Origin: Ignavibacteriota bacterium
GTDB taxonomy: Bacteria; Bacteroidota; Ignavibacteria; Palsa-1295
Length of the DNA: 64,000 nucleotides
Assembly: GCA_963787835.1 (NCBI GenBank)
Contig: CAWBEI010000002.1
Coordinates: 32,001-96,000, forward strand
Direction: 5' to 3'
Below, piece by piece: positions 1,185-28,098 of this stretch; within the stretch, counting starts at the first letter, position 1, and each line of letters opens with the position of its first letter. The notes under the pieces are model-generated. The model was not told the DNA's origin. It saw only the letters and a list, made by a program, of their open reading frames with translations, and ran no database searches. Position numbers and translations under genes: made by a program.

Positions 1185-3203
1185 ATGGTTCATCAATTCA
1201 AACTCTCGTCAGGGATCATTGCTGCGTTCCTATTTAGTATTTTCTCGGTTGTAGCAGTTAGTAGCACGCAGGCACAGATCTCGAAGCCAGTCATTGAATA
1301 TAATTTCCCAATGGATGGCTCGAAGTATGTTCCAGGCAATACTCCGATCATTTTCCGGCCCTCCGTTCCTGTAAGTATTCTTGGTGCCGCAAAAAATCTT
1401 GTGGTGACCGGTACCCTGACAGGCCGGCACCAAGGATGTATGGTCCTTTCTGATGATAATAGAACCATCATCTTTACACCCACCGATCCATTTGAAAGCG
1501 GGGATCATGTGACTGTAACATTGGGAACGGGAATCCAGACGACCATTGGATCGGAGCTTAGTCCAATATCTTTTTCATTTGATGTTCAGGATAACGAACC
1601 AGTCGAGCAAAGTCCTTTTTTGAGTGATCCTTTACCTCCAGCCAAACCACAACATGCTTTCCAAACGGACTCGACATTGCCCGCCGATTTCCCTGTTCTG
1701 CCGGATAGCATTAATAACAATCCTTCACCGGGCTATCTATTCCTTTCAACGTTCAAATATATTGCACTCTCGCAGGATACAGGGACTTCCGGAGCTTATC
1801 GGATGGTACTGGATAAGAATGGCAGCCCCGTCTATTATCAACATGCGGCTGACTCGATCGATTTTGATTTTCAGCCGCAGCCAAACGGCCTTATGACCTA
1901 TTTCGAGCTGCCAAGAAATAAATGGTTTGCGATGGATTCTACTTACAAGATCGTGGATAGTTTCTGGACCCAACCGCCTTATACCACCGACCTTCACGAC
2001 CTGGAATTGCTAACGCATGGCCATGCACTGATGCTCTCTTACTATCCGATCAAGCCATACAACCTGGCGCCTTATGGCGGGAGCGACACAGCAACCTTTA
2101 TTGGCTGCGTTATCGAGGAAACCGACTCCCTAAAACAGCCGGTCTGGATCTGGCGCTCCTGGGATCCCGGCCATTTCCTCGACACCGACGCCACCGAGGA
2201 TCCTATCACGGAGAAGCCCTACAATGGTGTTCAAGCCAATTCCATCCAGGTCGATACAGATGGAAATATCCTGCTTTCCTCGCGTGAACTGGATGAAGCA
2301 ACAAAGATCAGCCGTAAGGATGGACATCTTATCTGGCGTCTGGGTGGGAAGCATAACCAGTTTACATTCATTAATGACACTATTCGCTTCTCACACCAAA
2401 ATGCTGTGCGCCGGATTGCGAATGGGCATATCACGCTCTTCGACAACGGGAATTTTAACCATATCGCCATATCCTACGACACCATATCATTCCCGGCCGA
2501 TACCCAGATCATCGTAAGCCCTCCGGACACGATCATTACCCCGGCTTATACCCAAATAGATACAAATATCAACCCGGCCTTCGCGCGCGCCTGCGAATAC
2601 AATGTCGATACGGCTACAATGACAGCAACGCTCGTATGGCATTACGATCATGATTCAACGATCGCAAGCCAGGCAATGGGGTATGTGCAGCGGCTTCCGG
2701 ATGGGAACACCCTCATTAGCTGGGGAATGTATAATGGAGCCGGGGGCGCTTTCGCTCATCCCGCCGTCACGGAGGTAACCCCTGACAAAAAGAAGACTTT
2801 CGAAATGTACGTCATCGACCCCACGGCGATCTATCGCGCATTTAAATTCCCTTCGCCGAATTACGACACAGGTTTTGTGGCTGGGGCTTCACCATATATA
2901 CTGTTGAACGATGGAGTTGTTGCGGAAAACTCGATATCGAACGCGCCATTCCTCGGCTCACCCTATCCCAATCCATCCAATGGAAGCTCGATGGTTGGCA
3001 TCAGCGCAACCCTTTCGGATCGGCTGGAACTCAGCCTGTACGATCCGTTGGGCCGCTTGGTACGTAACTATTTTTCCGGCTTTGTTACTTCTCCTTCGTT
3101 CTCGCTTGAATTACTTACCAACGATCTCCCCAATGGCGCCTACGACCTTGTGCTTCGTGGCGATGGCGGCACTGTAAACCGCCAGCTCGTCATTTTGCGA
3201 TAA
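1185..3203 (+). CDS. Arylsulfotransferase (ASST)-family protein with N-terminal Ig-like domain and T9SS C-terminal domain; catalytic His residues substituted
   Basis: Signal peptide; DLHD, SSR, IWRLGG, LFDNG motifs; PYPNP...YDPLGR CTD; HxN reads QAN and QH reads QN. Confidence 0.8.
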   Translation: MVHQFKLSSGIIAAFLFSIFSVVAVSSTQAQISKPVIEYNFPMDGSKYVPGNTPIIFRPSVPVSILGAAKNLVVTGTLTGRHQGCMVLSDDNRTIIFTPTDPFESGDHVTVTLGTGIQTTIGSELSPISFSFDVQDNEPVEQSPFLSDPLPPAKPQHAFQTDSTLPADFPVLPDSINNNPSPGYLFLSTFKYIALSQDTGTSGAYRMVLDKNGSPVYYQHAADSIDFDFQPQPNGLMTYFELPRNKWFAMDSTYKIVDSFWTQPPYTTDLHDLELLTHGHALMLSYYPIKPYNLAPYGGSDTATFIGCVIEETDSLKQPVWIWRSWDPGHFLDTDATEDPITEKPYNGVQANSIQVDTDGNILLSSRELDEATKISRKDGHLIWRLGGKHNQFTFINDTIRFSHQNAVRRIANGHITLFDNGNFNHIAISYDTISFPADTQIIVSPPDTIITPAYTQIDTNINPAFARACEYNVDTATMTATLVWHYDHDSTIASQAMGYVQRLPDGNTLISWGMYNGAGGAFAHPAVTEVTPDKKKTFEMYVIDPTAIYRAFKFPSPNYDTGFVAGASPYILLNDGVVAENSISNAPFLGSPYPNPSNGSSMVGISATLSDRLELSLYDPLGRLVRNYFSGFVTSPSFSLELLTNDLPNGAYDLVLRGDGGTVNRQLVILR

Positions 3204-3249
3204 TTCGTAGCCACCACTCTTGAACGGTTATATCATTGATTCATTGCTT

Positions 3250-5211
3250 ATGCTTCCTTTTTACAAATCTTATCGATTGCTGGTTTTCTTCCTTTTGATC
3301 CTGACTTCACCGATCTATACCAATGGCTCATTCGCACAATCTCGTGTATCTATTGAGTACCATTTCCCGATGGATGGGTCTAAGTATGTGCCGCCTGACT
3401 CCAAGATCATCATTCGGCCATCCGGAACCGTTGATGCTGGAAGCGCGACAGCCTCATCGATCATCGTTACAGGTTCGAGCTCCGGTGTGCATCCTGTCAC
3501 GGCGTTGGTATCCGATGACCATCGCACCATTATCTTTAGCCCGAGTTCTCCATTCGACTTAGGCGAAATGGTGAATGTTCAGTTGCAGAACAGCCTGAGA
3601 TTGACGGACGGGTCTTCCCTACCTCCAATCTCATTTTCGTTTGAAGTCTCTCCTACGGAGCCAGACTCGACCGATGAAGAAATTCCGTTCAATGCTCATC
3701 CGGGAAATTTAAGCCTTGATGCGCCTCTTTCCCTTCCCGCCGATTTCCCCAAAATAGAAGTGGTCGCAAAGAACGATCCAGCTCCGGGTGATATTTTTCT
3801 TACGACCTATAATTTCTTTAGCGGCGGAAGTTTGGGGGCCTATCGAATGATCCTTGATTCACTGGCAAATCCGGTCTATTATGCCAAACCGTCTCGTTTT
3901 CTTGACTGGGACTTTAAACTTCTGCCCAATAAACAATTCGCGTTCTGTCAAGGAGGCTACAGTTCCAATTACCTGATGGCTACCGGTTCCAAATACTACA
4001 TCATGGATTCCAATTATGTCGTTCGCGACAGTTTTGACTCCTACACTGCAAATACACCCTACACAACAGATTTTCACGACCTCGAACTGCTCCCGAACGG
4101 TCACGCGTTGATGCTCGGGCTTGCTCCTTTACCCGGTATCAATATGAGTAAATATGTGAAAAATGGAAAAACAAACGCAACTGTTATGGGAGCGGTCATT
4201 GAAGAGCTCGACTTAACAAAAACTCCCATCTGGATCTGGAGAACATGGGATCCCGGACATTTCCTCGACACCGACGCGACGAACGATAACTTTTTAGAAG
4301 ATACTGTGGATGCCGTTCATGCCAACGCCATCCAGGTCGATACCGATGGCAACGTCCTTCTTTCCTCTCGAAGTATGGACGAGATCACCAAGATCAATCG
4401 ATTCGACACTGGGTCGATCATCTGGAGATTTGGCGGCAAACACAATCAATTCACCTTCATCAATGACTCGATGCACTTCTCGCATCAACATGCTATTCGG
4501 CGCATCGCCAATGGGCATCTGACGCTTTACGATAATGGGAACTATGGACATATCGTAACACGGAACGACACCACGATCGACAGCTCGGTCTCACCACCGG
4601 ACACGAGCATTTCCCCTTTCCAGACGCCATTTGCCCGCGCGTGCGAATATGACCTAAATGTTGAGAATGAGACCGCTACGCTGGTCTGGCATTATGACCA
4701 CGATTCGGGCGTTGCGAGTCAGGCGATGGGATATGTTCAACGATTGGATAATGGGAACACGTTAATTAACTGGGGCTTGAATTTCAATGGCTCTGCCCTT
4801 GTCGATCAGCCAGCCGTGACCGAGGTTCGCCCCAACGGAACTATTGTCTATGAACTGCACGTCGACATTCCGTATCTTGTCTATCGGGCGGAAAAATTCG
4901 TTCTGCCTGCCTCCTCGAGCGCTGTGAATTCGACGACTCTGACTAATACCAGCCTCGTGCTCGGCGAGCCATTTCCGAACCCGGCCAATGGCAGTTCTCG
5001 CGTTGTGGTGAGCGCACCGGCTTCCGAGCAAGTTGCGCTTGAACTCTATGATCCCATTGGCCGCAAGGTCCGCGAATATTTTGCGGGACCGCTCGGAATG
5101 CCTATCAGCGCCCTCGAACTCGAAACTGGAGATCTGCCGAATGGCGCATACACGCTCGTTCTCCGTGGCGAGGACGCAACTGTTAGCCGGCAATTGGTCA
5201 TCCTGCGATAG
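3250..5211 (+). CDS. Arylsulfotransferase (ASST)-family protein with Ig-like and T9SS C-terminal domains
   Basis: Paralogue of the previous gene; intact DFHD, HANAI, SSR, HQH, YDNG motifs; PFPNP CTD; ATG at 3250 preferred over TTG at 3220. Confidence 0.82.
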   Translation: MLPFYKSYRLLVFFLLILTSPIYTNGSFAQSRVSIEYHFPMDGSKYVPPDSKIIIRPSGTVDAGSATASSIIVTGSSSGVHPVTALVSDDHRTIIFSPSSPFDLGEMVNVQLQNSLRLTDGSSLPPISFSFEVSPTEPDSTDEEIPFNAHPGNLSLDAPLSLPADFPKIEVVAKNDPAPGDIFLTTYNFFSGGSLGAYRMILDSLANPVYYAKPSRFLDWDFKLLPNKQFAFCQGGYSSNYLMATGSKYYIMDSNYVVRDSFDSYTANTPYTTDFHDLELLPNGHALMLGLAPLPGINMSKYVKNGKTNATVMGAVIEELDLTKTPIWIWRTWDPGHFLDTDATNDNFLEDTVDAVHANAIQVDTDGNVLLSSRSMDEITKINRFDTGSIIWRFGGKHNQFTFINDSMHFSHQHAIRRIANGHLTLYDNGNYGHIVTRNDTTIDSSVSPPDTSISPFQTPFARACEYDLNVENETATLVWHYDHDSGVASQAMGYVQRLDNGNTLINWGLNFNGSALVDQPAVTEVRPNGTIVYELHVDIPYLVYRAEKFVLPASSSAVNSTTLTNTSLVLGEPFPNPANGSSRVVVSAPASEQVALELYDPIGRKVREYFAGPLGMPISALELETGDLPNGAYTLVLRGEDATVSRQLVILR

Positions 5212-5282: not shown

Positions 5283-5309
5283 GGTCGCAAACTAAAGTTT
5301 GCGCTACAT
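5283..5309. repeat. GTAG-type REP unit, identical to 50398-50424
   Basis: GGTCGCAAACTAAAGTTTGCGCTACAT occurs at both sites. Confidence 0.8.
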
Positions 5310-5336
5310 ATCATTATTCATATTTTCCCCCACTCC

Positions 5337-7775
5337 GTGGATCTATTTCAAAAATGTTACGACTTCACCCGCGCCGATGAAGTAAAAGAAGCTGGATATT
5401 ATCCCTATTTCAGAGCCATTGAAGAGAACGAAGGCCCGGTCGTCCAGATCGAAGGCCGCAAGGTCATTATGGCCGGCTCCAATAATTATCTCGGGCTGAC
5501 GGCCGATCCGCGCGTCAAGGAAGCGGCCATCAAAGCCATCGAGCGCTATGGGACGGGTTGCTCTGGTTCGCGTTACCTCACTGGGACGGTCCGTTTGCAC
5601 GAAGAACTCGAGCATGAGATGGCTGATTATTTCCAAAAAGAGGCATGCCTGCTATTCTCGACCGGATACCAGACTGCCCAAGGGGTTATCCCGACGCTCT
5701 GCCAGCGAGGCGAGTATGTTATCAGCGATAAAGACAACCATGCGTGCATCGTTGCTGGAAACCTGATGGCGAGAGGCATGTATGGCGAAGTGGTTCGGTA
5801 CAATCACAATGATATGGGTGATCTTGAACGCCGCATTTCCAAGCTCCCGGTCGATGCACCGAAGCTCATCGTAAGCGATGGCGTTTTTTCGACCTCCGGT
5901 GAAATTGTTGACTTGCCACGCATGGTCGAGCTTGCAAAAATGTACAATGCCCGGATCATGGTTGATGACGCACATGCGGTCGGCGTCATCGGTGAAGGCG
6001 GACGCGGCACGGCAAGCTATTTCAATCTCGTCAAAGAGACGGACATGACGATGGGAACATTTTCTAAGACGTTCGCAAGTCTTGGCGGTTTCGTCGTTGG
6101 CGAGGAGCGCGTCATCAACTACATCAAGCACCAGGCTTCCGCACTGATCTTTTCCGCCAGTCCGACACCAGCCTCCGTTGCTGCGGCGCTGATGTCACTC
6201 AAAATTCTTCGCGAAGAACCGGAGCGCATCCAGCATTTGATCGACAATGCCGATTACATGCGCCGCGAGTTCAAGGCGATGGGGTTCAAGGTTATCGAGT
6301 CAAAAACAGGGATCGTTCCTGTTATTGTTGGCGATGACATCAAGACGCTCGTCTTCTGGCGAAAGCTCTTCGATGCCGGTGTGTTCGTGAATGCGTTCGT
6401 TGTGCCGGGCGTGATGCAGGGTATGCAGATGATGCGTACCAGCTTCATGGCAACCCATGAAAAGCATCATCTGGACAGGATCTTAGAACTTTTTAAAGAA
6501 ATTGGAGAAGAATTGGGCGTTTTAGACGAGGACGAGGCACCGGAGTCTAAAATCTCCACTACGTCCAAACCGTCAGCTCCGTCCACAACGACAGTTCACA
6601 TTCGCAAAGTGGAGAACCGCAAGGACAAACTCCGTTTCGTCCGGCTTCCATGGAATCTTTATGAAAATGAAAAGAATTGGGTTCCACCACTCGAAATGGA
6701 TCGCATGCGGCTTATCGACGAAGTCAAAAATCCATTTTACAAGCATGCGACCCATCAACTGTTTCTGGCTGAAGATAATAGCGGCAAGGTCATCGGTCGA
6801 ATAGCGGCTATTATCAATCACCGGCATAACGAACTCTATGCCGCAGAGCAAGGCATGACGGGCTTTGTGGGATTTTTCGATTGTATTGACGATCAATCGG
6901 TAGCCAATGCCCTCTTTTTAGCGGCTGAGGATTTCCTCCGGTCGCACGGGATGAAGCATGTACGCGGGCCGGTCAGTCCATCCATTAATGATGAGGTTGG
7001 TTTGCTTGTGGAAGGATTCCAATACCCTCCTGCCGTGATGATGCCGTATCATCCTGCCTATTACAAAAAGCTTTGGGAAAATGCGGGGTATGGAAAAGTG
7101 CAAGATCTCCTTGCATGGCGTATCACAGAGACGAAATCGCTCTCGCCGAAGATCGAGCGCGTGACGAATATCTTGCGCGAGCGATCGAAGGTAAAGATCC
7201 GCTCGCTCGATATGAAAAAATACGATGCGGAGGTGAATCTGATTCGTGACCTCTATTCACGCGGATGGGAAGAGAATTGGGGAGCCGTTCCGCTGGACAA
7301 CGGAGAGATCACGATGCTGGCCGATGAACTGCGGCAGATCATCGATCCTGATTTTGTCCTGTTCGCGGAAGCCCCCGATGCAAATGGCAAAATGCAGACC
7401 ATCGGATTTTCGCTGTGCATTCCGGACATCAATCAGGCATTCCTTGCCGGAAAGCCGATCCCGAAGGGTGCGATGAATCTGCCTACGGCCATCTCAAATC
7501 TCATGACAAAAAAGAAAGCGATCGATAATCTCCGAATTGTATTGCTTGGCGTGATGCCCGAATATCGCGGGCGTGCTGTCGATGCGTTGCTCTATCGCGA
7601 GATCATGGAACGGGCCAAGAAAAAGGGAATCAAATTTGGCGAAGCATCGTGGGTTCTGGAAGATAACATGATGATGTCCCGCGCGGCCGAAGTGATGAAC
7701 GGCGAGCCCTACAAACGGTATCGCGTGTTCGAGAAACCGCTCTATCAGGGCGATGAGCGGGTCGGGCCAGTGTAA
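5337..7775 (+). CDS. Fusion: serine palmitoyltransferase-like alpha-oxoamine synthase plus bCerS-like GNAT N-acyltransferase
   Basis: N-half: [33 protein letters not shown] (PLP Lys). After an S/T/P-rich linker: [54 protein letters not shown] at 5337 is the likely start because the 5277 extension runs through a REP. Confidence 0.8.
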
Positions 7776-7782
7776 GGAACGG

Positions 7783-9138
7783 TTACCGAGAGATCACAAG
7801 CTTTTGCGTGGCTGTCGTGCCATCGGCTGTGAGTCGAACGAAATACGTTCCAGGCTCGAATGCGAGAGGATCGAGCGTCAGTACATTCTCACCGGGCAGT
7901 GCCGGACCATTCTGAAAAACGCGAATGGTTCGGCCTAATTCGTCCAGTATCGACACCTGCACGGGACCAGCAGTGCTCATCGTGTAGGTGATCTTTACTA
8001 CCGAGCCAGAAGCAGGGTTCCCAATTACTGTGAGGTCAAACCCAGCATTGACGTTCGGTAGTGTAACCAATGAAGGAGCAAAATCCGAAAGCTTCCGGAC
8101 CCATACTCCATTGGCATAAGTGCCGACTACCAGATTCGGGCCTGACGTATCCATGGAAATAATGTAACCGGCATCACCGTTAGAGGGTGGAAACCCGTCA
8201 TTGTTTGGAGCCCAGTTCACGCCATTATCGGATGAAACATAGACGCTGCTATCGGCCGCAACAAATAAATTTTGACCGTTCGATACAAAGCCAAGCACGT
8301 TATTCCAATTTTGAGCTTGATCATTTGCTTTAATCCAGCTTTGTCCTTCGTTTGTCGTGTAATAAACTTCTGAATGGATCAGGTCGGTATCAGGGATAAT
8401 AGCAAAAAGAGTTGACCCCTTGATCGCAAATTTAGCAACCGTCGTTCCATCGAAATAGCTCGTTGGTAACCCACTATCGATGGGAGACCATGATCCCCCT
8501 TCATTGGTCGAACGATAGGCGCCACCATCCCTTGTTCCAGCAAAAAAATTGGAGCCGGAAACTAGAAGCGAAACTACAGATGCAGGGCTGAAATCTCCAT
8601 CCGGCACTTCGCCGATGGTATCGGGCATCCAGTCAGCTCCCGGCCCAACTTGCTGAAACACACCTGAACCCGTGGCAGCGAAGATTGTGTCGCCGATCGT
8701 CGTCAACACCCCTATACTAAAACGTGATAGAATCGGGTTGGGAAAGTCGTTAATATTCATCTCCCACGTATGCCCAGCATCCGTACTGAAGTAAGATCCT
8801 CCAGAAGAATTAGAACCGACAACTAAATCCGTTCCCGCTGCAGCCATGGATGTAATAACCAAGGGCACCGTGTCGCCAAGAACAAAACTCCAGCTCTTGC
8901 CATGGTCGGTAGAGGTGAAAATCGAATCTGGTTCTTGGGAGCCTACCCCTGCAATCATGTTGTTCCCAAAGACTGCAAGACTCCCAATGAATGAATTCCC
9001 GATCCCGCTGGCCTGCGTCCATTGTTGTGCGCCGGCTGTGGGGAGAAAGATAACCAAACAAATCGCGCATAATACGATAACAAGCGATCCGCCTTCTTTC
9101 AGAAAAAGCAATATTGAGACAATAGAATTGTGTCTCAT
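7783..9138 (-). CDS. Secreted Asp-box (BNR) beta-propeller protein with T9SS C-terminal domain
   Basis: Repeated S-x-D/N-x-G-x-S/T-W motifs; signal peptide; DELGR...PGTYFVRL CTD. Confidence 0.75.
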   Translation of the reverse strand: MRHNSIVSILLFLKEGGSLVIVLCAICLVIFLPTAGAQQWTQASGIGNSFIGSLAVFGNNMIAGVGSQEPDSIFTSTDHGKSWSFVLGDTVPLVITSMAAAGTDLVVGSNSSGGSYFSTDAGHTWEMNINDFPNPILSRFSIGVLTTIGDTIFAATGSGVFQQVGPGADWMPDTIGEVPDGDFSPASVVSLLVSGSNFFAGTRDGGAYRSTNEGGSWSPIDSGLPTSYFDGTTVAKFAIKGSTLFAIIPDTDLIHSEVYYTTNEGQSWIKANDQAQNWNNVLGFVSNGQNLFVAADSSVYVSSDNGVNWAPNNDGFPPSNGDAGYIISMDTSGPNLVVGTYANGVWVRKLSDFAPSLVTLPNVNAGFDLTVIGNPASGSVVKITYTMSTAGPVQVSILDELGRTIRVFQNGPALPGENVLTLDPLAFEPGTYFVRLTADGTTATQKLVISR

Positions 9139-9260
9139 TCCCACATTTTTAGATTAATGACATATACCCCGACCCTCGTTCTCTGACCCCACAAAGAACG
9201 AACGGTCAGCTTCTGCTTAATTGAAACGAGGAAGAACCACAATGATTCCGAATCGCGAAA

Positions 9261-10679
9261 TTACCGGGTGATCACCAACTTCTCCGTAACTGACTCGCCA
9301 TTCGACGAAAGGCGGACGAAATACGAACCGGGAGCGAAGCTGAGCGGATCGAGCGTCAGTACGTTCTGACCCGACAACGCCATACCATTCTGAAGGACGC
9401 GAACGGTTCGGCCTAATTCATCCATCACCGACACCTGCGTGGGACCGGCATCGCTCATAGTATAGGTGATCGTTACTCCCGAACCGGAAGCCGGGTTCCC
9501 TGATATAGCAAGTTTCAGCCCGGCATCCGATCCCGCTATTGGAGTCACAGCAGAAAGCCCAAGATCCGATAGCTTCCGGATCCATACACCATTTTCAAAC
9601 GTACTGACCATCACATATCCGCCAGAGACCTGCACAGCATTCACATAAGGTCCGTTAGCGGTTGGAAGTCCGGCATTCCACTGCGTCCATGTTGTGCCGC
9701 TATTAGTGGACACATAGAAACCGCTGTCGGTAGCAGCGAATAGGTTCTGACCGAATGCTGCAAGCTGGGGGGTAACATTGGACCAGGTTTGCGGAGTAGA
9801 ATTCTTCAGCGTCCAACTCTGGCCGTTATTCGTGGTGAGATAGCAATCGTACGTGTTGTCCGTACTGTCATGAGCGAACAATGCATAAAGCGAGGAGCCC
9901 GAATTTGCGAACGCCCAAGCAGGCGCCCAGCCGTTGTTACTGTCTAAATACGATAAACCCGAATTTGCTGAGGACCACGATGCACCATTATTCGTCGAGA
10001 CATACATGCCGAAACCAGCAGATGCAGCGATCAAATTATTTCCGGATGACACTAATTTATTGACCCCAATCGGATAAACTACCCCTTGATAGGAGATCGT
10101 CATTCCAACGGTATCTGGTGTCCATGGTGCTCCGGGTGCCGTTTGTTGAAAAATGCCCGATCCGCCGCACGACATATAGATCTTCCCGTTGAACGAAATC
10201 AATGCCGCAGCAAACGCATTCGTATCCGGCCATCCTGTTGTATCGGCAAACCATGTTTGGCCCTGATCTCTGGAATAGCAGAGCACGGTTTTATTCCCGG
10301 TTGCCGGTGATAGGTTCGCAGAGCCGATCAGCGCATATCCGGCATTCGTTTGGAATGCGACAAGCGGAACACCGCCATTCGGAGCAAAGCTTGACCAGGT
10401 TTGGCCGTTATCCGATGAAAGGAAAAGAGAATCCGACGTAGCGCCCGTCTGATTGCTTGCGCATCTCGCATCGGCAAGAAGATTGTTCCCATACACCAGG
10501 AAACCTGCGACGTCATCGACATTATTATTCCCCAGCGAATTACTGAATCCTGTCACCTGCTTCCATTGTGCAAACGCGGCATGATTCGAGATGATCAGTA
10601 CAATGGCAAACGCTGCGAAACGAATTGCAACTCGTTTCGAGCGAGGGAAGAACGGAGACACCGTAAAAGTATTATTCAT
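9261..10679 (-). CDS. Secreted Asp-box beta-propeller protein with T9SS C-terminal domain
   Basis: SSDNGQTW, STNNGASW, TTNNGQSW repeats; paralogue of both neighbours. Confidence 0.75.
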   Translation of the reverse strand: MNNTFTVSPFFPRSKRVAIRFAAFAIVLIISNHAAFAQWKQVTGFSNSLGNNNVDDVAGFLVYGNNLLADARCASNQTGATSDSLFLSSDNGQTWSSFAPNGGVPLVAFQTNAGYALIGSANLSPATGNKTVLCYSRDQGQTWFADTTGWPDTNAFAAALISFNGKIYMSCGGSGIFQQTAPGAPWTPDTVGMTISYQGVVYPIGVNKLVSSGNNLIAASAGFGMYVSTNNGASWSSANSGLSYLDSNNGWAPAWAFANSGSSLYALFAHDSTDNTYDCYLTTNNGQSWTLKNSTPQTWSNVTPQLAAFGQNLFAATDSGFYVSTNSGTTWTQWNAGLPTANGPYVNAVQVSGGYVMVSTFENGVWIRKLSDLGLSAVTPIAGSDAGLKLAISGNPASGSGVTITYTMSDAGPTQVSVMDELGRTVRVLQNGMALSGQNVLTLDPLSFAPGSYFVRLSSNGESVTEKLVITR

Positions 10680-10719
10680 GAATATGGATTTGGTTAGTTG
10701 AGCAATTCTATTCTGGAAA

Positions 10720-12172
10720 TTATCTCGCGATCACGAGCTTTTGCATGGTGGCAGCGCCATCGGCGGTCAGGCGTACGAAGTACGTTCCGGGATCGAGCGT
10801 GCGGGAATCGAGCGTGACCATATTTTCCCCCGGCAACGATGTACCATTCTGGAACATTCGCACGCTTCGGCCCAATTCGTCCATCACGAGGATCTGTGCA
10901 TCACTGGCATCGGGAAGAGTATAGGTAACCTTTACTTCGGAACTCGAAGCAGGGTTTTGGGACAATGAAAGGCTCAGGCCATCCGCACGTGTTGGATTCG
11001 CGGACACGGATGAAATCCCAAAGGAGGAAAGGGATCGATACCACGCACCAGACGAATTGGTACCGATCACAATATTTCCACCGGAAACTATAACGGAATT
11101 TGGATAATCTCCCGGCGTAAATGCAAGACCTTGATCCTCCTGCGTCCATGTCGAACCGTTGTTGGATGAATAATAAAAACCGCTATCTGTAACGGCAAAT
11201 AAATTTTGATTGTATGCGGCAAGGCTATACAGCAATCCCCAATTTAAAATCAGATGAATTCTGCTTACTCCAATTCTGACCGTTATTTGTTGTAAGATAA
11301 ATATCGACGGTATCGAAGTCGGATCCACCAAATTGATCGGTGTCATGAGCGATCACTGCATATACGGACGAGCCATAAACAGCGAATTGATCCGCCTCAT
11401 ACCAATTATTGAATCCCGAGGAGGTGAAGGATGGCAATCCACTATTTTCAGACGTCCAGAGCATCCCCTGGTTCGTAGATACAAAGATTCCATCACCACT
11501 CCCCTCCAGCGTGGAAAGAAATAAATTATTTCCGGATGCTGCTAACCAACCGATCTCTGAGAAAAACGGGAATGTGTATCCCATCCCACTCGAATCCAGC
11601 GTCCAGATCCCGCCGGGGGTTGTTTGGCTAAAAACACCATACGAGTTCGACGCATAGGCTGTGTTTCCGATCTTAGCAAGCGAAAGGGCTTGGCCATTGG
11701 TACCTGTGAGGTTCCATCCCGTCGTATCGATCGCCCATGTCTGTCCATAATCTGTGGAAAAAGAGAGCACTGCGTCGGAAATATTATTGTCGGCAGGAGA
11801 GGGCTGTGCCTCTCCGATGAAATCATTTCCAACCACCACCAATGGCCGTTGCCCGTAGGGAGCAAAATCCGTCCATGTTTGCCCGTGATCCGTAGAAAGA
11901 AAGAGTGAATCGGGCGTCGCGCCAGGGTTGTTTAGCAGATCGTCGGCGCAAAACGCCGAGGCCAGCAGTGAATCGCCCCAAAGCGTGAAGCCGGCGACCT
12001 GATCGACGTTATCAGGCAAACTGGCATTGACATTCGAAAAACCTGTAGCCTGTTTCCATTGCGCGAAAGACACCTCTTCGAATGCAAACAGCAACGAGTA
12101 ACAGACGGCAATAGCAAAGGCCGCGCGAAACGAGATCGAACTCATGGACGAATGGAACGTAAGTTTTTTCAT
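10720..12172 (-). pseudogene. Third Asp-box/T9SS paralogue split by a 1-nt frameshift (pseudogene or sequencing error)
   Basis: ORF 11225..12172 has the signal peptide and Asp-boxes. ORF 10720..11346 has the last blade and the CTD. Removing one base near 11243-11249 joins them collinearly with 9261..10679. Confidence 0.75.
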
Positions 12173-19261: not shown

Positions 19262-20398
19262 ATGAGTGAGCGCACCACCATCCGCAAAATATCTTCAACC
19301 GCCGACAAGCGCACGTTCGTGCGCATGATGTGGGACATCTATCGCGACGATCCCCATTGGGTTCCACCACTGGAAATGGATCGGATGAAATTGATCGACG
19401 AGAAGAAAAATCCCTTCTACACTCATGCCGAAACAGGCTGGTGGCTTGCCGAGCAGAATGGCAAGCCAGTGGGACGCATTGCAGCGATCGTCAATCATAA
19501 TTACAATCAGGCACAGAACGAACAAGCTGCCTTCTTCGGATTTTTCGAGACGGTGAACGATGCTTCGGTTGCAAAGGAATTATTTCAAGCTGCGGAGTCG
19601 TGGGTTAAAGAGCGTGGAATGAATGTCGTGTATGGGCCGGCAAATCCATCCTCGAACGACGAATACGGCCTGCTCATCGAGGGCTTCGACCGCCCACCGG
19701 TGCTGCTGATGACGTATAACCCTCCATACTATGCATCGCTCATCGAGCAGAATGGATATACGAAAGCGCAGGACTTATATGCCTATCTGCTTTCGCAAGA
19801 CACCGCGCGTTCGGATAAACTTGTCCGCGTTACGAAGGCAATGGCGGAGCGGAACAAGATCACCGTCCGCGCGATGAATACCAAACAGTTTAACGATGAA
19901 GTGGAACGCATCAAAGTGATCTATAATGCAGCCTGGGAGAACGAAGGCTTCGTCCCATTCACGGATGCTGAAATGGATTTTCTCGCCGCTGACCTAAAGC
20001 AGATCTACGACCCAGAATTAGTGCTGTTCGCTGAAGTGGATGGGAAGACTGTCGGGTTTGCACTTTCGCTCCCAGACGTGAACCAGGCGTTCTACTCCGG
20101 GATGAAGATACCTCGTGGAATGGGAAATCTGCCGGTCGGAATTTGGAAATTGCTGACCAAGAAAAAAGCAATAAATACCATTCGGATTATTGTGCTCGGA
20201 GTATTGAAGGAATACCGCAACCGCGGTGTGGATGCGATGCTCTATGCAGAAACGATGAACGTGGCAAAGCGGAAAGGCTATCACTACGGCGAAGCATCCT
20301 GGGTGCAGGAAACCAACGTTCCGATGAACCGCGCCGCACAAATGATGAATGGGGAGAAGTATAAGACGTATCGTGTGTATAGGAAGAACCTTGTCTGA
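19262..20398 (+). CDS. Stand-alone bCerS-like GNAT N-acyltransferase
   Basis: [51 protein letters not shown]; aligns over its full length with the C-half of 5337..7775. Confidence 0.78.
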   Translation: MSERTTIRKISSTADKRTFVRMMWDIYRDDPHWVPPLEMDRMKLIDEKKNPFYTHAETGWWLAEQNGKPVGRIAAIVNHNYNQAQNEQAAFFGFFETVNDASVAKELFQAAESWVKERGMNVVYGPANPSSNDEYGLLIEGFDRPPVLLMTYNPPYYASLIEQNGYTKAQDLYAYLLSQDTARSDKLVRVTKAMAERNKITVRAMNTKQFNDEVERIKVIYNAAWENEGFVPFTDAEMDFLAADLKQIYDPELVLFAEVDGKTVGFALSLPDVNQAFYSGMKIPRGMGNLPVGIWKLLTKKKAINTIRIIVLGVLKEYRNRGVDAMLYAETMNVAKRKGYHYGEASWVQETNVPMNRAAQMMNGEKYKTYRVYRKNLV

Positions 20399-26600: not shown

Positions 26601-27416
26601 GTGCGAAAACATTCCGAGCTATCCAGTATTTCCCTCCCGCTTTCAACGACCGATCCTCTTTCCATTTCAGACATTCTTCGAACGCCCTTACCCGAAGCTG
26701 CAAGAATTGACCGTTTCTTAATACGCAGCGGGATACTCTTTACCCGGCATCTCGTTGTTCAAATCGAAGGTTTAGACACTATCGTAACGAGCAACGATCC
26801 ATTCATCCTCGTCGCGAATCATAGCCAGCGTTTAGAGGCGATCATGCTTCCAGCACTCGTTGCATTCCATCGCAAAGGTAATTTCATTGAATTTCTTTCA
26901 GACTGGAATTTCCACTTGATACCAGGAATAGGTTTCCTTTTTCGAAGAGCCCGGACCATCCCGGTGGGTATCAAACCCGCCAGACCTAAGTTCCTCAATT
27001 ATTTCAAACGGTTTATTGTACGCGGAGTGCATGGGTTCGCGTTTGCAAAAACACGCTTACAAGCGGGGGCAAGTATAGGAATATTTCCGGAAGGAACCGT
27101 CAACAGGAACCCACGTGAACTTTTACGCGGCCAGCTTGGCGCGGCCCGGCTTGCCATCGAGACCGGCGTGCCACTTATTCCTGTAGGGATACGCTTTCCG
27201 GAGCATCAACACGGGAATAAGATTCCCGATGTCGCGCCCTTGTCGATCCACATCGGCACTCCGATCTATCCGCCAAAAATCGAGAACCCGGAGCGTTCGG
27301 ATCTTCTTGCCTTGCATCACACGATGATGCAGCAGATCTCAATTTTGTCACACAAGCATTGGCATCCACAATCATCAAGGAGAACATCGTATGATAAACT
27401 CACGAATCAAGATTGA
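26601..27416 (+). CDS. Lysophospholipid acyltransferase (PlsC-like)
   Basis: NHSQRLE (HxxxxD variant) and FPEGT motifs. Confidence 0.82.
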   Translation: MRKHSELSSISLPLSTTDPLSISDILRTPLPEAARIDRFLIRSGILFTRHLVVQIEGLDTIVTSNDPFILVANHSQRLEAIMLPALVAFHRKGNFIEFLSDWNFHLIPGIGFLFRRARTIPVGIKPARPKFLNYFKRFIVRGVHGFAFAKTRLQAGASIGIFPEGTVNRNPRELLRGQLGAARLAIETGVPLIPVGIRFPEHQHGNKIPDVAPLSIHIGTPIYPPKIENPERSDLLALHHTMMQQISILSHKHWHPQSSRRTSYDKLTNQD

Positions 27417-28098
27417 CGCCATTCGCGCAGAGGACGAAGGAGCGCGCCAGGCCGCACTTACCGTATTGAGAGAAACTTACCGTAACGAAAAACATTGGAC
27501 ATCGGACGAACAAACCCTGTTCCATGAATCGGACTTGACCGATCCAAACGTTTCCTGGTTTGTTGCCTTTGCCGATTGCGAACCGGCAGGAGTGCTGCGC
27601 GTGCTCTACGATCCGCCGCTCGAGCTCTATATGAAGTATGGTTTCGAGCGCATCGGCTCGGAAGAATTGAATGTCGATGATTTCCTTGCCAACAACAAAA
27701 TTGCTGAGATCGGACGATTAGCTGTTGTGCCCAAATTCCGTACGAAGATCACGACCGTCGCGGCGCTCATTCGCCCTGCCATCAAAGATGCGGTTACTCG
27801 CGGGTATTCCCATTATATTACGGACATTTTCGAGAACGAACAGCATAATCCATATCTGTTTCACACCAGAATTCTTGGGTTCACACCGATTGCGACCCAT
27901 GCATCTGGTGAACTTTCCGCGCTCAATCGCCGCATTACGCTGATCCTCAATATCAAGGCCAGCTATCTGCGTCTGAAAAAGAACGGGAATTGGATCTACC
28001 GGTATATCACCGAGGGGTGGGATGCCAAGCTCCATGAGCAAATATCCAGCGATCTTCGCGAGACAGGCAGAGAAACGGCCGCTCTCGGAATTCGTTAG
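27391..28098 (+). CDS. GNAT-fold acyltransferase, FeeM/LuxI-like
   Basis: GVLRV...IAEIGRLAVVPKFR motif; overlaps the upstream gene. Confidence 0.6.
   Translation: MINSRIKIDAIRAEDEGARQAALTVLRETYRNEKHWTSDEQTLFHESDLTDPNVSWFVAFADCEPAGVLRVLYDPPLELYMKYGFERIGSEELNVDDFLANNKIAEIGRLAVVPKFRTKITTVAALIRPAIKDAVTRGYSHYITDIFENEQHNPYLFHTRILGFTPIATHASGELSALNRRITLILNIKASYLRLKKNGNWIYRYITEGWDAKLHEQISSDLRETGRETAALGIR

Follow-up and report, generated by a model that had tools for sequence, protein, structure and literature searches.

A 64,000-nucleotide stretch of an Ignavibacteriota genome (assembly GCA_963787835.1, contig CAWBEI010000002.1, positions 32,001 to 96,000; here called the window, with positions counted from its first letter) carries a gene that joins, in one chain, a domain of the serine palmitoyltransferase (Spt) family to a domain of the bacterial ceramide synthase (bCerS, or CerS) family. 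Specifically, this spt-cerS fusion is an open reading frame (ORF) of 812 amino acids with a GTG start (5337..7775, plus strand), as judged from the ORF list, the conserved start and homologues. It comprises an Spt-type alpha-oxoamine synthase (AOS) domain (residues 1-396; 5337..6524, plus strand), a flexible linker (residues 397-420; 6525..6596, plus strand) and a tandem-GNAT N-acyltransferase domain of the bCerS/YghO family (residues 421-803; 6597..7745, plus strand). Further along the same strand lies a free-standing cerS paralogue of 378 amino acids (19262..20398), 51% identical to the fused domain. A preliminary description of the locus, made from the sequence alone, had noted one uninterrupted ORF joining the two domains. 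The translation of 5337-7775 indeed contains no internal stop, it includes the motifs [26 protein letters not shown] and NHACI, and it is conserved in relatives, with the GTG start matched in 19 of 20 related loci and TTG in the remaining one.

The fusion is real and not an assembly artefact, because homologues with both halves are conserved and an independent contig spans the whole ORF. Both halves are near full length in 95 of the 120 protein matches listed (the best 120 of 392), a count in which the record of the window itself and a distant, independent fusion are included. The contig, from an independent peat metagenome run (X5), covers the ORF with 240 differences and one compensating +1/-1 indel pair, located within the linker, which keeps the frame. 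Continuity across the linker, which the preliminary description had proposed to check, is thereby seen at the contig level, in one piece and with no stop. An assembly or frame error joining two neighbouring genes would fit the relatives in which the two genes are adjacent and in frame, and the support across the linker comes from assembled contigs, not raw reads; given that 47 of the 48 genomes in two families have the genes fused and that the independent contig shows frame-preserving indels, however, we count this explanation as refuted by conservation and leave it a negligible probability.

The linker [24 protein letters not shown] is of low complexity, with 5 S, 5 T, 3 P and 2 K among its 24 residues; the S/T/P/K-rich composition noted earlier thus accounts for 15 of the 24. 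It is predicted to be disordered (predicted local distance difference test, pLDDT, <50; predicted template modelling score, pTM, of the monomer model 0.55), and its length ranges from 19 to 94 residues across fused relatives within the clade. In 12 pairwise within-genus comparisons, nonsynonymous divergence (pN) was 0.02-0.07 for the Spt domain, 0.05-0.16 for the CerS domain and 0.36-0.67 for the linker, with synonymous divergence (pS) at about 0.63-0.77, near saturation. Both domains are therefore maintained under strong purifying selection, and the linker sequence drifts with the frame kept, which suggests that it acts as a tether. No transmembrane segment is predicted in the fusion (maximum hydropathy 1.41).

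Upstream of the gene, a short element at about 5283-5313 finds matches, on either strand, in several unrelated contigs (runs X1, X2 and X5) and is probably a small repeated intergenic sequence. A scan for promoters and terminators stayed at chance level (4 promoters against 2.2±1.4 expected; 4 terminators against 3.1±2.3), and the single matching 187-base contig of RNA run X6 is not evidence of expression.

The Spt-type half and its likely substrate

Pfam Aminotran_1_2 spans residues 43-384 of the amino-terminal half (E 7e-53). Its best match in the Protein Data Bank (PDB) is the serine palmitoyltransferase (SPT) of Sphingobacterium multivorum (3A2B/8GUH, 369 bits), followed by the BioF/Kbl-type ThAOS (260 bits), Sphingomonas SPTs (about 251), Kbl (at most 232) and the cysteate-type enzyme CFAT 28EH (212); Foldseek also places the S. 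multivorum SPT at the top, with 44% identity in the structural alignment. Among NCBIfam models, SerpalmtaseCFB (NF047600) ranks first at 477 bits, under its cut-off of 640. This cut-off is reached by none of 61 sampled genomes of the phylum, and the model therefore does not cover the lineage. The Spt-type assignment of the preliminary description is further borne out by a tree of the kind that it had proposed: in a careful version built on 27 of the 86 rows of a quick version, and used for support, the half groups with verified-type SPTs (88/92), apart from the CFAT and Kbl clades (both 100/100). An identity as BioF or Kbl was rejected, given NCBIfam scores under both cut-offs (362 and 350 bits), the SPT-side position in the tree and the presence of other genes for these roles. 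The genome holds exactly three AOS genes, namely the fusion, a separate Kbl gene (670 bits, over the cut-off) and a BioF-like gene inside a bioB-F-D-A-type operon, whose genes were read from their sequences; the BioF and Kbl roles are filled by G000:C4:220149 and G000:C2:1111349, G000 being the window's genome.

Residue roles for S. multivorum SPT, as given in the available text of PMC10196870, were carried over by alignment, with N52, G80, S81 and H138 corresponding to N49, G77, S78 and H135 of the fusion. On this mapping, K244 in the motif GTFSK (6066..6068, plus strand; K244 in S. multivorum as well) is the predicted lysine for pyridoxal 5'-phosphate (PLP), and H135 (5739..5741, plus strand) the predicted histidine that stacks on PLP and anchors the substrate. 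The serine- and PLP-site residues of SPT are kept (N49, G77, S78, H135, S185, D210, A212, H213, T241, S243, K244, F272, S273 and A274), the His/Asp/His cofactor triad of a fold-type I AOS among them (H135, D210 and H213), and substitutions near the cofactor and acyl site are F83>Y, N85>T, F114>Y, N117>A, S140>C, M186>T, E187>S and M271>I in S. multivorum numbering. The preliminary description had taken the variant motifs as a sign that the substrate may not be serine. This suggestion was not supported by the comparison: the substitutions, variant motifs included, also occur in most unfused orthologues of the class and are therefore not a feature of the fusion, and the CFAT residues K280, A82, F113, F245 and A249 (from the available text of PMC13692747) are absent, with A274, S78, T109, M239 and S243 standing in their places.

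Because the motifs are class-wide and the trans-subunit lysine of the cysteate enzymes (Lys280/281) is absent, serine is the likely substrate of the PLP domain; as the available text of PMC13692747 reports for CFAT that first-shell residues do not by themselves determine specificity, it is likely rather than proven. A different amino acid, such as alanine or glycine for 1-deoxy bases, homoserine or cysteate, would turn the product into an unusual aminolipid instead of a serine ceramide. This appears improbable: the class-wide active-site substitutions, three of them common to CFATs (Y111 for Y115, C137 for C141 and no Asn at 114 for N117), and the acceptance of Ala, Gly and homoserine by S. 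multivorum SPT (PMC10196870, available text) speak for it, but SPT-type residues occupy the five CFAT positions at which two CFAT-type sequences aligned with it (one of them confirmed by 715 bits to 28EH) carry the CFAT set, the half scores 212 bits to CFAT against 369 to SPT, and Tyr at 111 is also present in E. coli and Sphingomonas Spt. Compared with known enzymes, the fusion thus has the S. multivorum SPT (3A2B, 8GUH) and the Bacteroides-type SPT (NF047600) as its best sequence and fold match and keeps their GTFSK motif and serine-site residues, but falls under the NCBIfam cut-off, carries N85T, N117A, S140C, M186T, E187S and F83Y and adds a C-terminal GNAT. With the CFATs (CapB/COCFAT 28EH, SulA 7U7H) it has the fold, Tyr115, Cys141 and the absence of Asn117 in common, whereas Lys280, Ala82, Phe113, Phe245 and Ala249 are missing and the clade is separate. 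Two other families of the phylum (L136, L137) encode CFAT-type (sulfonolipid) enzymes with low SPT-model scores, and these lineages may make sulfonolipids instead of ceramides.

The CerS half and its free-standing paralogue

Residues 421-803 align end to end with YghO of E. coli BL21 (35% identity, E 3e-75), which passes the filter of E 1e-30 and 50% coverage given in the available text of PMC11334938; the Pfam GNAT match is weak (E 8e-4). Membership was judged against YghO, as the orthologue of Caulobacter CC_1154. The available text of PMC9386255 lists yghO as the orthologue of CC_1154, the E. coli gene lies in a spt-acp-cerR locus, and full-length CerS homologues adjoin spt in Sphingomonas, Streptomyces, Rubrobacter and Aureispira records. 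The predicted structure (pLDDT 95.7) has a tandem GNAT fold, and the nearest solved folds, MAB_4324 (7Q3A), MshD, a clostridial glucosamine N-acetyltransferase and similar tandem GNATs, reach a TM of 0.51-0.63; they differ in having only 10-15% identity and small acyl donors. Searching the PDB with the sequence of this half gave no genuine relative (best E 0.04), neither sequence nor fold comparison turned up a bCerS structure there, and the ESM Atlas yielded unnamed GNAT clusters only. The full-length homology and the fold agree with the bCerS-family assignment of the preliminary description, with the domain start now placed at 6597 (about 6594 before).

Is the fused domain an active enzyme? 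In a set of 37 single-copy CerS sequences, 48 positions are conserved at a level of 90% or more, and 41 of them are retained, at that same level, across 21 fused domains; among the seven exceptions, five are partial, mostly conservative changes, and two are common to the free paralogue. The C-terminal acyl-CoA-binding GNAT motifs are intact (R733, G738, E769, W772 and N777), the catalytic residues of bCerS being left undefined in the available texts of the cited papers. Both observations argue against a catalytically inert or regulatory role of the fused GNAT, such as sensing the product or anchoring Spt in the membrane, with the free paralogue as the working ceramide synthase. The retention of a free cerS in 46 of the 48 genomes of the fused families and the roughly 2x faster evolution of the fused CerS domain relative to the Spt domain would fit such a role, which we nonetheless regard as very improbable.

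The free paralogue itself is a constant companion of the fusion. With the fused domain as query and a threshold of E 1e-75, two CerS matches were found in 26 of 27 genomes of the window's family and 20 of 21 of a second family, or 46 of 48 related and thus not independent genomes; the other 203 genomes of the class have one match in 195 cases, none in 8 and two in no case. More distant CerS paralogues (25-29% identity) occur in some unfused genomes. In the CerS tree, whose support comes from a careful version on 31 of 76 rows, the fused domains have the free copies of the window's family as their sister group (100/99), whereas the second family's free copies group with the single-copy CerS of other families. 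Monophyly of the free copies is rejected by the approximately unbiased (AU) test (p 1e-5, for a grouping picked after the quick tree), and the trees indicate that the free CerS of the two families differ in origin. That both families keep a free CerS in addition to the fused one, and of different origin in each, therefore suggests that the fused domain does not replace every CerS function, and the free enzyme likely performs a related but non-redundant acylation. About 7 kb from the free cerS, adjacent genes for a PlsC-type acyltransferase and a FeeM-type N-acyl amino acid synthase (26601-28098) form a possible aminolipid pair of the ornithine- or glycine-lipid kind.

Distribution and origin of the fusion

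The survey covered 251 genomes of the class, of which 27 belong to the window's family, 21 to the second fused family and 203 to 26 other families. An Spt-type match is present in 246 of the 251 and a cerS-like match in 243. The fusion occurs in all 27 genomes of the window's family, where one copy runs into the end of its contig, and in 20 of 21 of the second family, where four were confirmed by cutting out and the lone miss is an 88% complete genome. Outside these families, none was found among the best 103 of 199 matches from the 203 genomes; long open frames in five genomes (G074, G051, G073, G102 and G037) were cut out and rejected as fusions. The search for the same architecture in other genomes, proposed in the preliminary description, thus yields 47 fused genomes of 48 in two families. 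Its placement in an FCB-type lineage is matched by the titles of close-match records, which name Ignavibacteriota, Ca. Kapaibacterium/Kapabacteria, Ignavibacteria, Chlorobi and Bacteroidetes metagenome-assembled genomes. The genome also encodes LpxC.

Unfused relatives show the arrangement from which the fusion would have arisen. In 23 of 28 loci cut out from unfused class members, cerS lies directly downstream of spt on the same strand, in keeping with the earlier statement that the two are normally separate genes, and 22 of the 28 carry a divergent cerR-like gene; the spacing between spt and cerS is 8-325 bases, often in frame. In the fused families, the orthologue of this cerR-like gene is present but unlinked in 46 of 48 genomes (G000:C5:73581-74558 in the window's genome). 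Because a single clade unites the fused Spt domains of the two families (100/100, and 100 in the larger quick tree) and another unites their fused CerS domains (96/97), the fusions of both families are explained, on the evidence of the trees, by a single fusion event from an adjacent spt-cerS gene pair.

Tree comparisons also indicate that Spt and CerS were joined independently in other lineages. Besides the present clade, CerS follows an AOS domain in P0158, P0159, P0186, P0170 and P0187 (among the best 150 of 30149 representative matches) and in P0119, and for P0119, P0158 and P0159 the AU test rejects a common origin with the present clade (p 5e-6). P0170 and P0187 (919 and 933 amino acids) carry an N-terminal PilZ domain before the AOS and CerS domains, and one cluster member is labelled Ca. 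Dadabacteria; because their AOS lacks the SPT G-S-R motif, their substrate may differ. In P0184, P0185, P0195, P0208, P0274 and P0179 (790-1022 amino acids), a FemAB-like tandem GNAT precedes the Spt-like domain, in one case with a C-terminal PilZ; this is a second, unrelated type of acyltransferase-AOS fusion. P0161 (784 amino acids) consists of two CerS-family domains in tandem without an AOS. Among unfused arrangements, spt, cerS and cerR are tightly packed, with ends overlapping or nearly abutting, in Streptomyces (L146:3944-7226) and Rubrobacter (L147:3908-7275), unlike the separate-operon rule for cerS in the available text of PMC11324152. A cerR/spt/cerS trio on a plasmid of Aureispira anguillae (L144:2747-6576) has the divergent layout of the class and nests within the class in both trees, making acquisition by horizontal transfer probable.

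Other genes near these loci belong to the surroundings. A class IV, IlvE-like aminotransferase often follows cerS in unfused relatives (L041, L043-L046, L049 and L054) and could supply branched-chain acyl primers; the window's genome has no match to it at E 1e-8. A cytidylyltransferase beside some fusion loci was considered as a sphingolipid head-group gene and identified as KdsB, and the arylsulfotransferase-like and BNR neighbours were rejected as parts of the system, as they vary between relatives. Specifically, the region directly upstream of the fusion (1185-5211) encodes, as in some relatives only, two arylsulfotransferase-like proteins in tandem that carry Ig domains and C-terminal tails for secretion sorting, and a run of BNR/VPS10-like beta-propeller genes with sorting tails lies on the minus strand (7783-12172), the third of which appears split into two ORFs (11225-12172 and 10720-11346).

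Proposed reactions and what the fusion may mean

With moderate confidence, we favour a model in which the PLP domain would condense L-serine with a long-chain acyl thioester to 3-ketosphinganine, the tethered GNAT would N-acylate this base to 3-keto-dihydroceramide, and the separately encoded CerR-like enzyme would then carry out the reduction. We infer the substrates and the order of steps, whereas the architecture, families, residues, selection and gene-pair origin are shown by the data set out above. Because the Spt family works as a homodimer, the assembly would comprise an Spt dimer at its centre and two flexibly tethered CerS domains, predicted to act at the cytoplasmic face of the inner membrane. 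If the 3-keto intermediate is channelled, as the preliminary description suggested it may be, the flexible and length-variable linker favours closeness through tethering over a rigid tunnel: held near Spt by the tether, CerS would meet the hydrophobic keto base at a higher local concentration. As acyl donor, acyl-CoA or a housekeeping acyl-ACP is likely, because the genome encodes a single acyl carrier protein (ACP) and no specialised AcpR; neither AcpR nor AasR was found near the fusion. According to the available text of PMC11087976, Spt and bCerS are both cytoplasmic in Caulobacter, and are therefore compatible with a single chain.

Several points weigh against this model. The Spt half fails the curated SPT cut-off (477 against 640 bits), the class-specific substitutions N85>T, N117>A, S140>C, M186>T, E187>S and F83>Y lie close to the cofactor and acyl site, the first shell alone may not set the specificity, and the free CerS, which nearly all of these genomes carry, could catalyse the acylation itself. 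Furthermore, the order of acylation and reduction is disputed between PMC11087976 and the reduce-first accounts of PMC11324152 and PMC9386255 (available texts), and the CerR-like protein starts directly with its Rossmann motif and has no evident signal peptide; reduction could therefore be cytoplasmic and come first.

These last points lead to a eukaryote-like order, in which a cytoplasmic CerR would reduce the 3-ketosphinganine released by the Spt domain, the fused CerS would acylate sphinganine and the fusion would be an operon fixed by the loss of a stop codon, coupling expression only. The closely spaced and often in-frame genes of unfused relatives mean that a small mutation would be enough for fusion, and the linker is unconserved at 19-94 residues; a Streptomyces record (H56, Streptomyces sp. 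NBC_00158) is, moreover, annotated as a bifunctional SDR (short-chain dehydrogenase/reductase) oxidoreductase/PLP-dependent AOS, possibly an Spt-reductase fusion that bears on the order of steps. However, Spt-CerS fusions recur independently, Spt is joined to a CerR-like domain in none of the best 150 of the 30149 representative matches, and deletion of cerR in Caulobacter leads to the accumulation of oxidised ceramide (PMC11087976, available text), such that we consider the reduce-first order unlikely.

Set beside known systems, the fusion has clear relatives and clear differences. Its halves are homologous over their full length to Spt and bCerS (CerS, aca; CC_1154, YghO) of the Spt/bCerS/CerR pathway of Caulobacter crescentus and E. 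coli BL21 (34% identity to E. coli Spt, 35% to YghO), and a CerR-like gene is present here too, but unlinked; the differences are the single chain, the lack of AcpR/AasR nearby and the second, free CerS. For Rhodobacteria, the available text of PMC11324152 places cerS in an operon other than that of spt, whereas here the two are fused. Covalent links between an Spt-like domain and other steps of long-chain-base synthesis are seen in AasR-ACP-Spt types and in the polyketide synthase/AOS system SgaAB of Pseudomonas fluorescens (PMC12134224, available text). Those proteins join upstream, acyl-supplying domains, while the present fusion joins the downstream N-acyltransferase.

The fusion of these two known consecutive enzymes is conserved and apparently undescribed. 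In agreement with the preliminary description, which knew of no characterised example, full-text literature searches of main texts turned up no account of an Spt-bCerS fusion; the words fusion and fused in the available texts of PMC6148460, PMC11324152, PMC11334938, PMC10411912, PMC12134224 and PMC9386255 did not refer to one, and a literature search for Prosthecochloris and ceramide found nothing. Databases mostly label the fusion proteins 8-amino-7-oxononanoate synthase or bioF, and one NCBI record reads bifunctional aminotransferase/GNAT. The present assignment thereby corrects an annotation; spt-like and cerS-like genes are nearly ubiquitous in the class. Repeated and independent joining of Spt and CerS is evidence, of the Rosetta-stone kind, that one step directly follows the other, and the disputed order could be tested in one pot with this one soluble protein and no reductase. 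Because no bCerS structure was found in the PDB, the fusion is, furthermore, a candidate structural target.

The near-universal free CerS, finally, points to an unexplained division of labour. As a tentative and rather speculative proposal, ceramide synthase work could be split, with the Spt-tethered CerS taking nascent 3-ketosphinganine from de novo synthesis and the free CerS serving a second route, for instance the salvage of free sphingoid bases or the use of another acyl chain. If true, such a split would settle the acylate-first order and would constitute a bacterial counterpart of the specialisation of CerS isoforms in eukaryotes.

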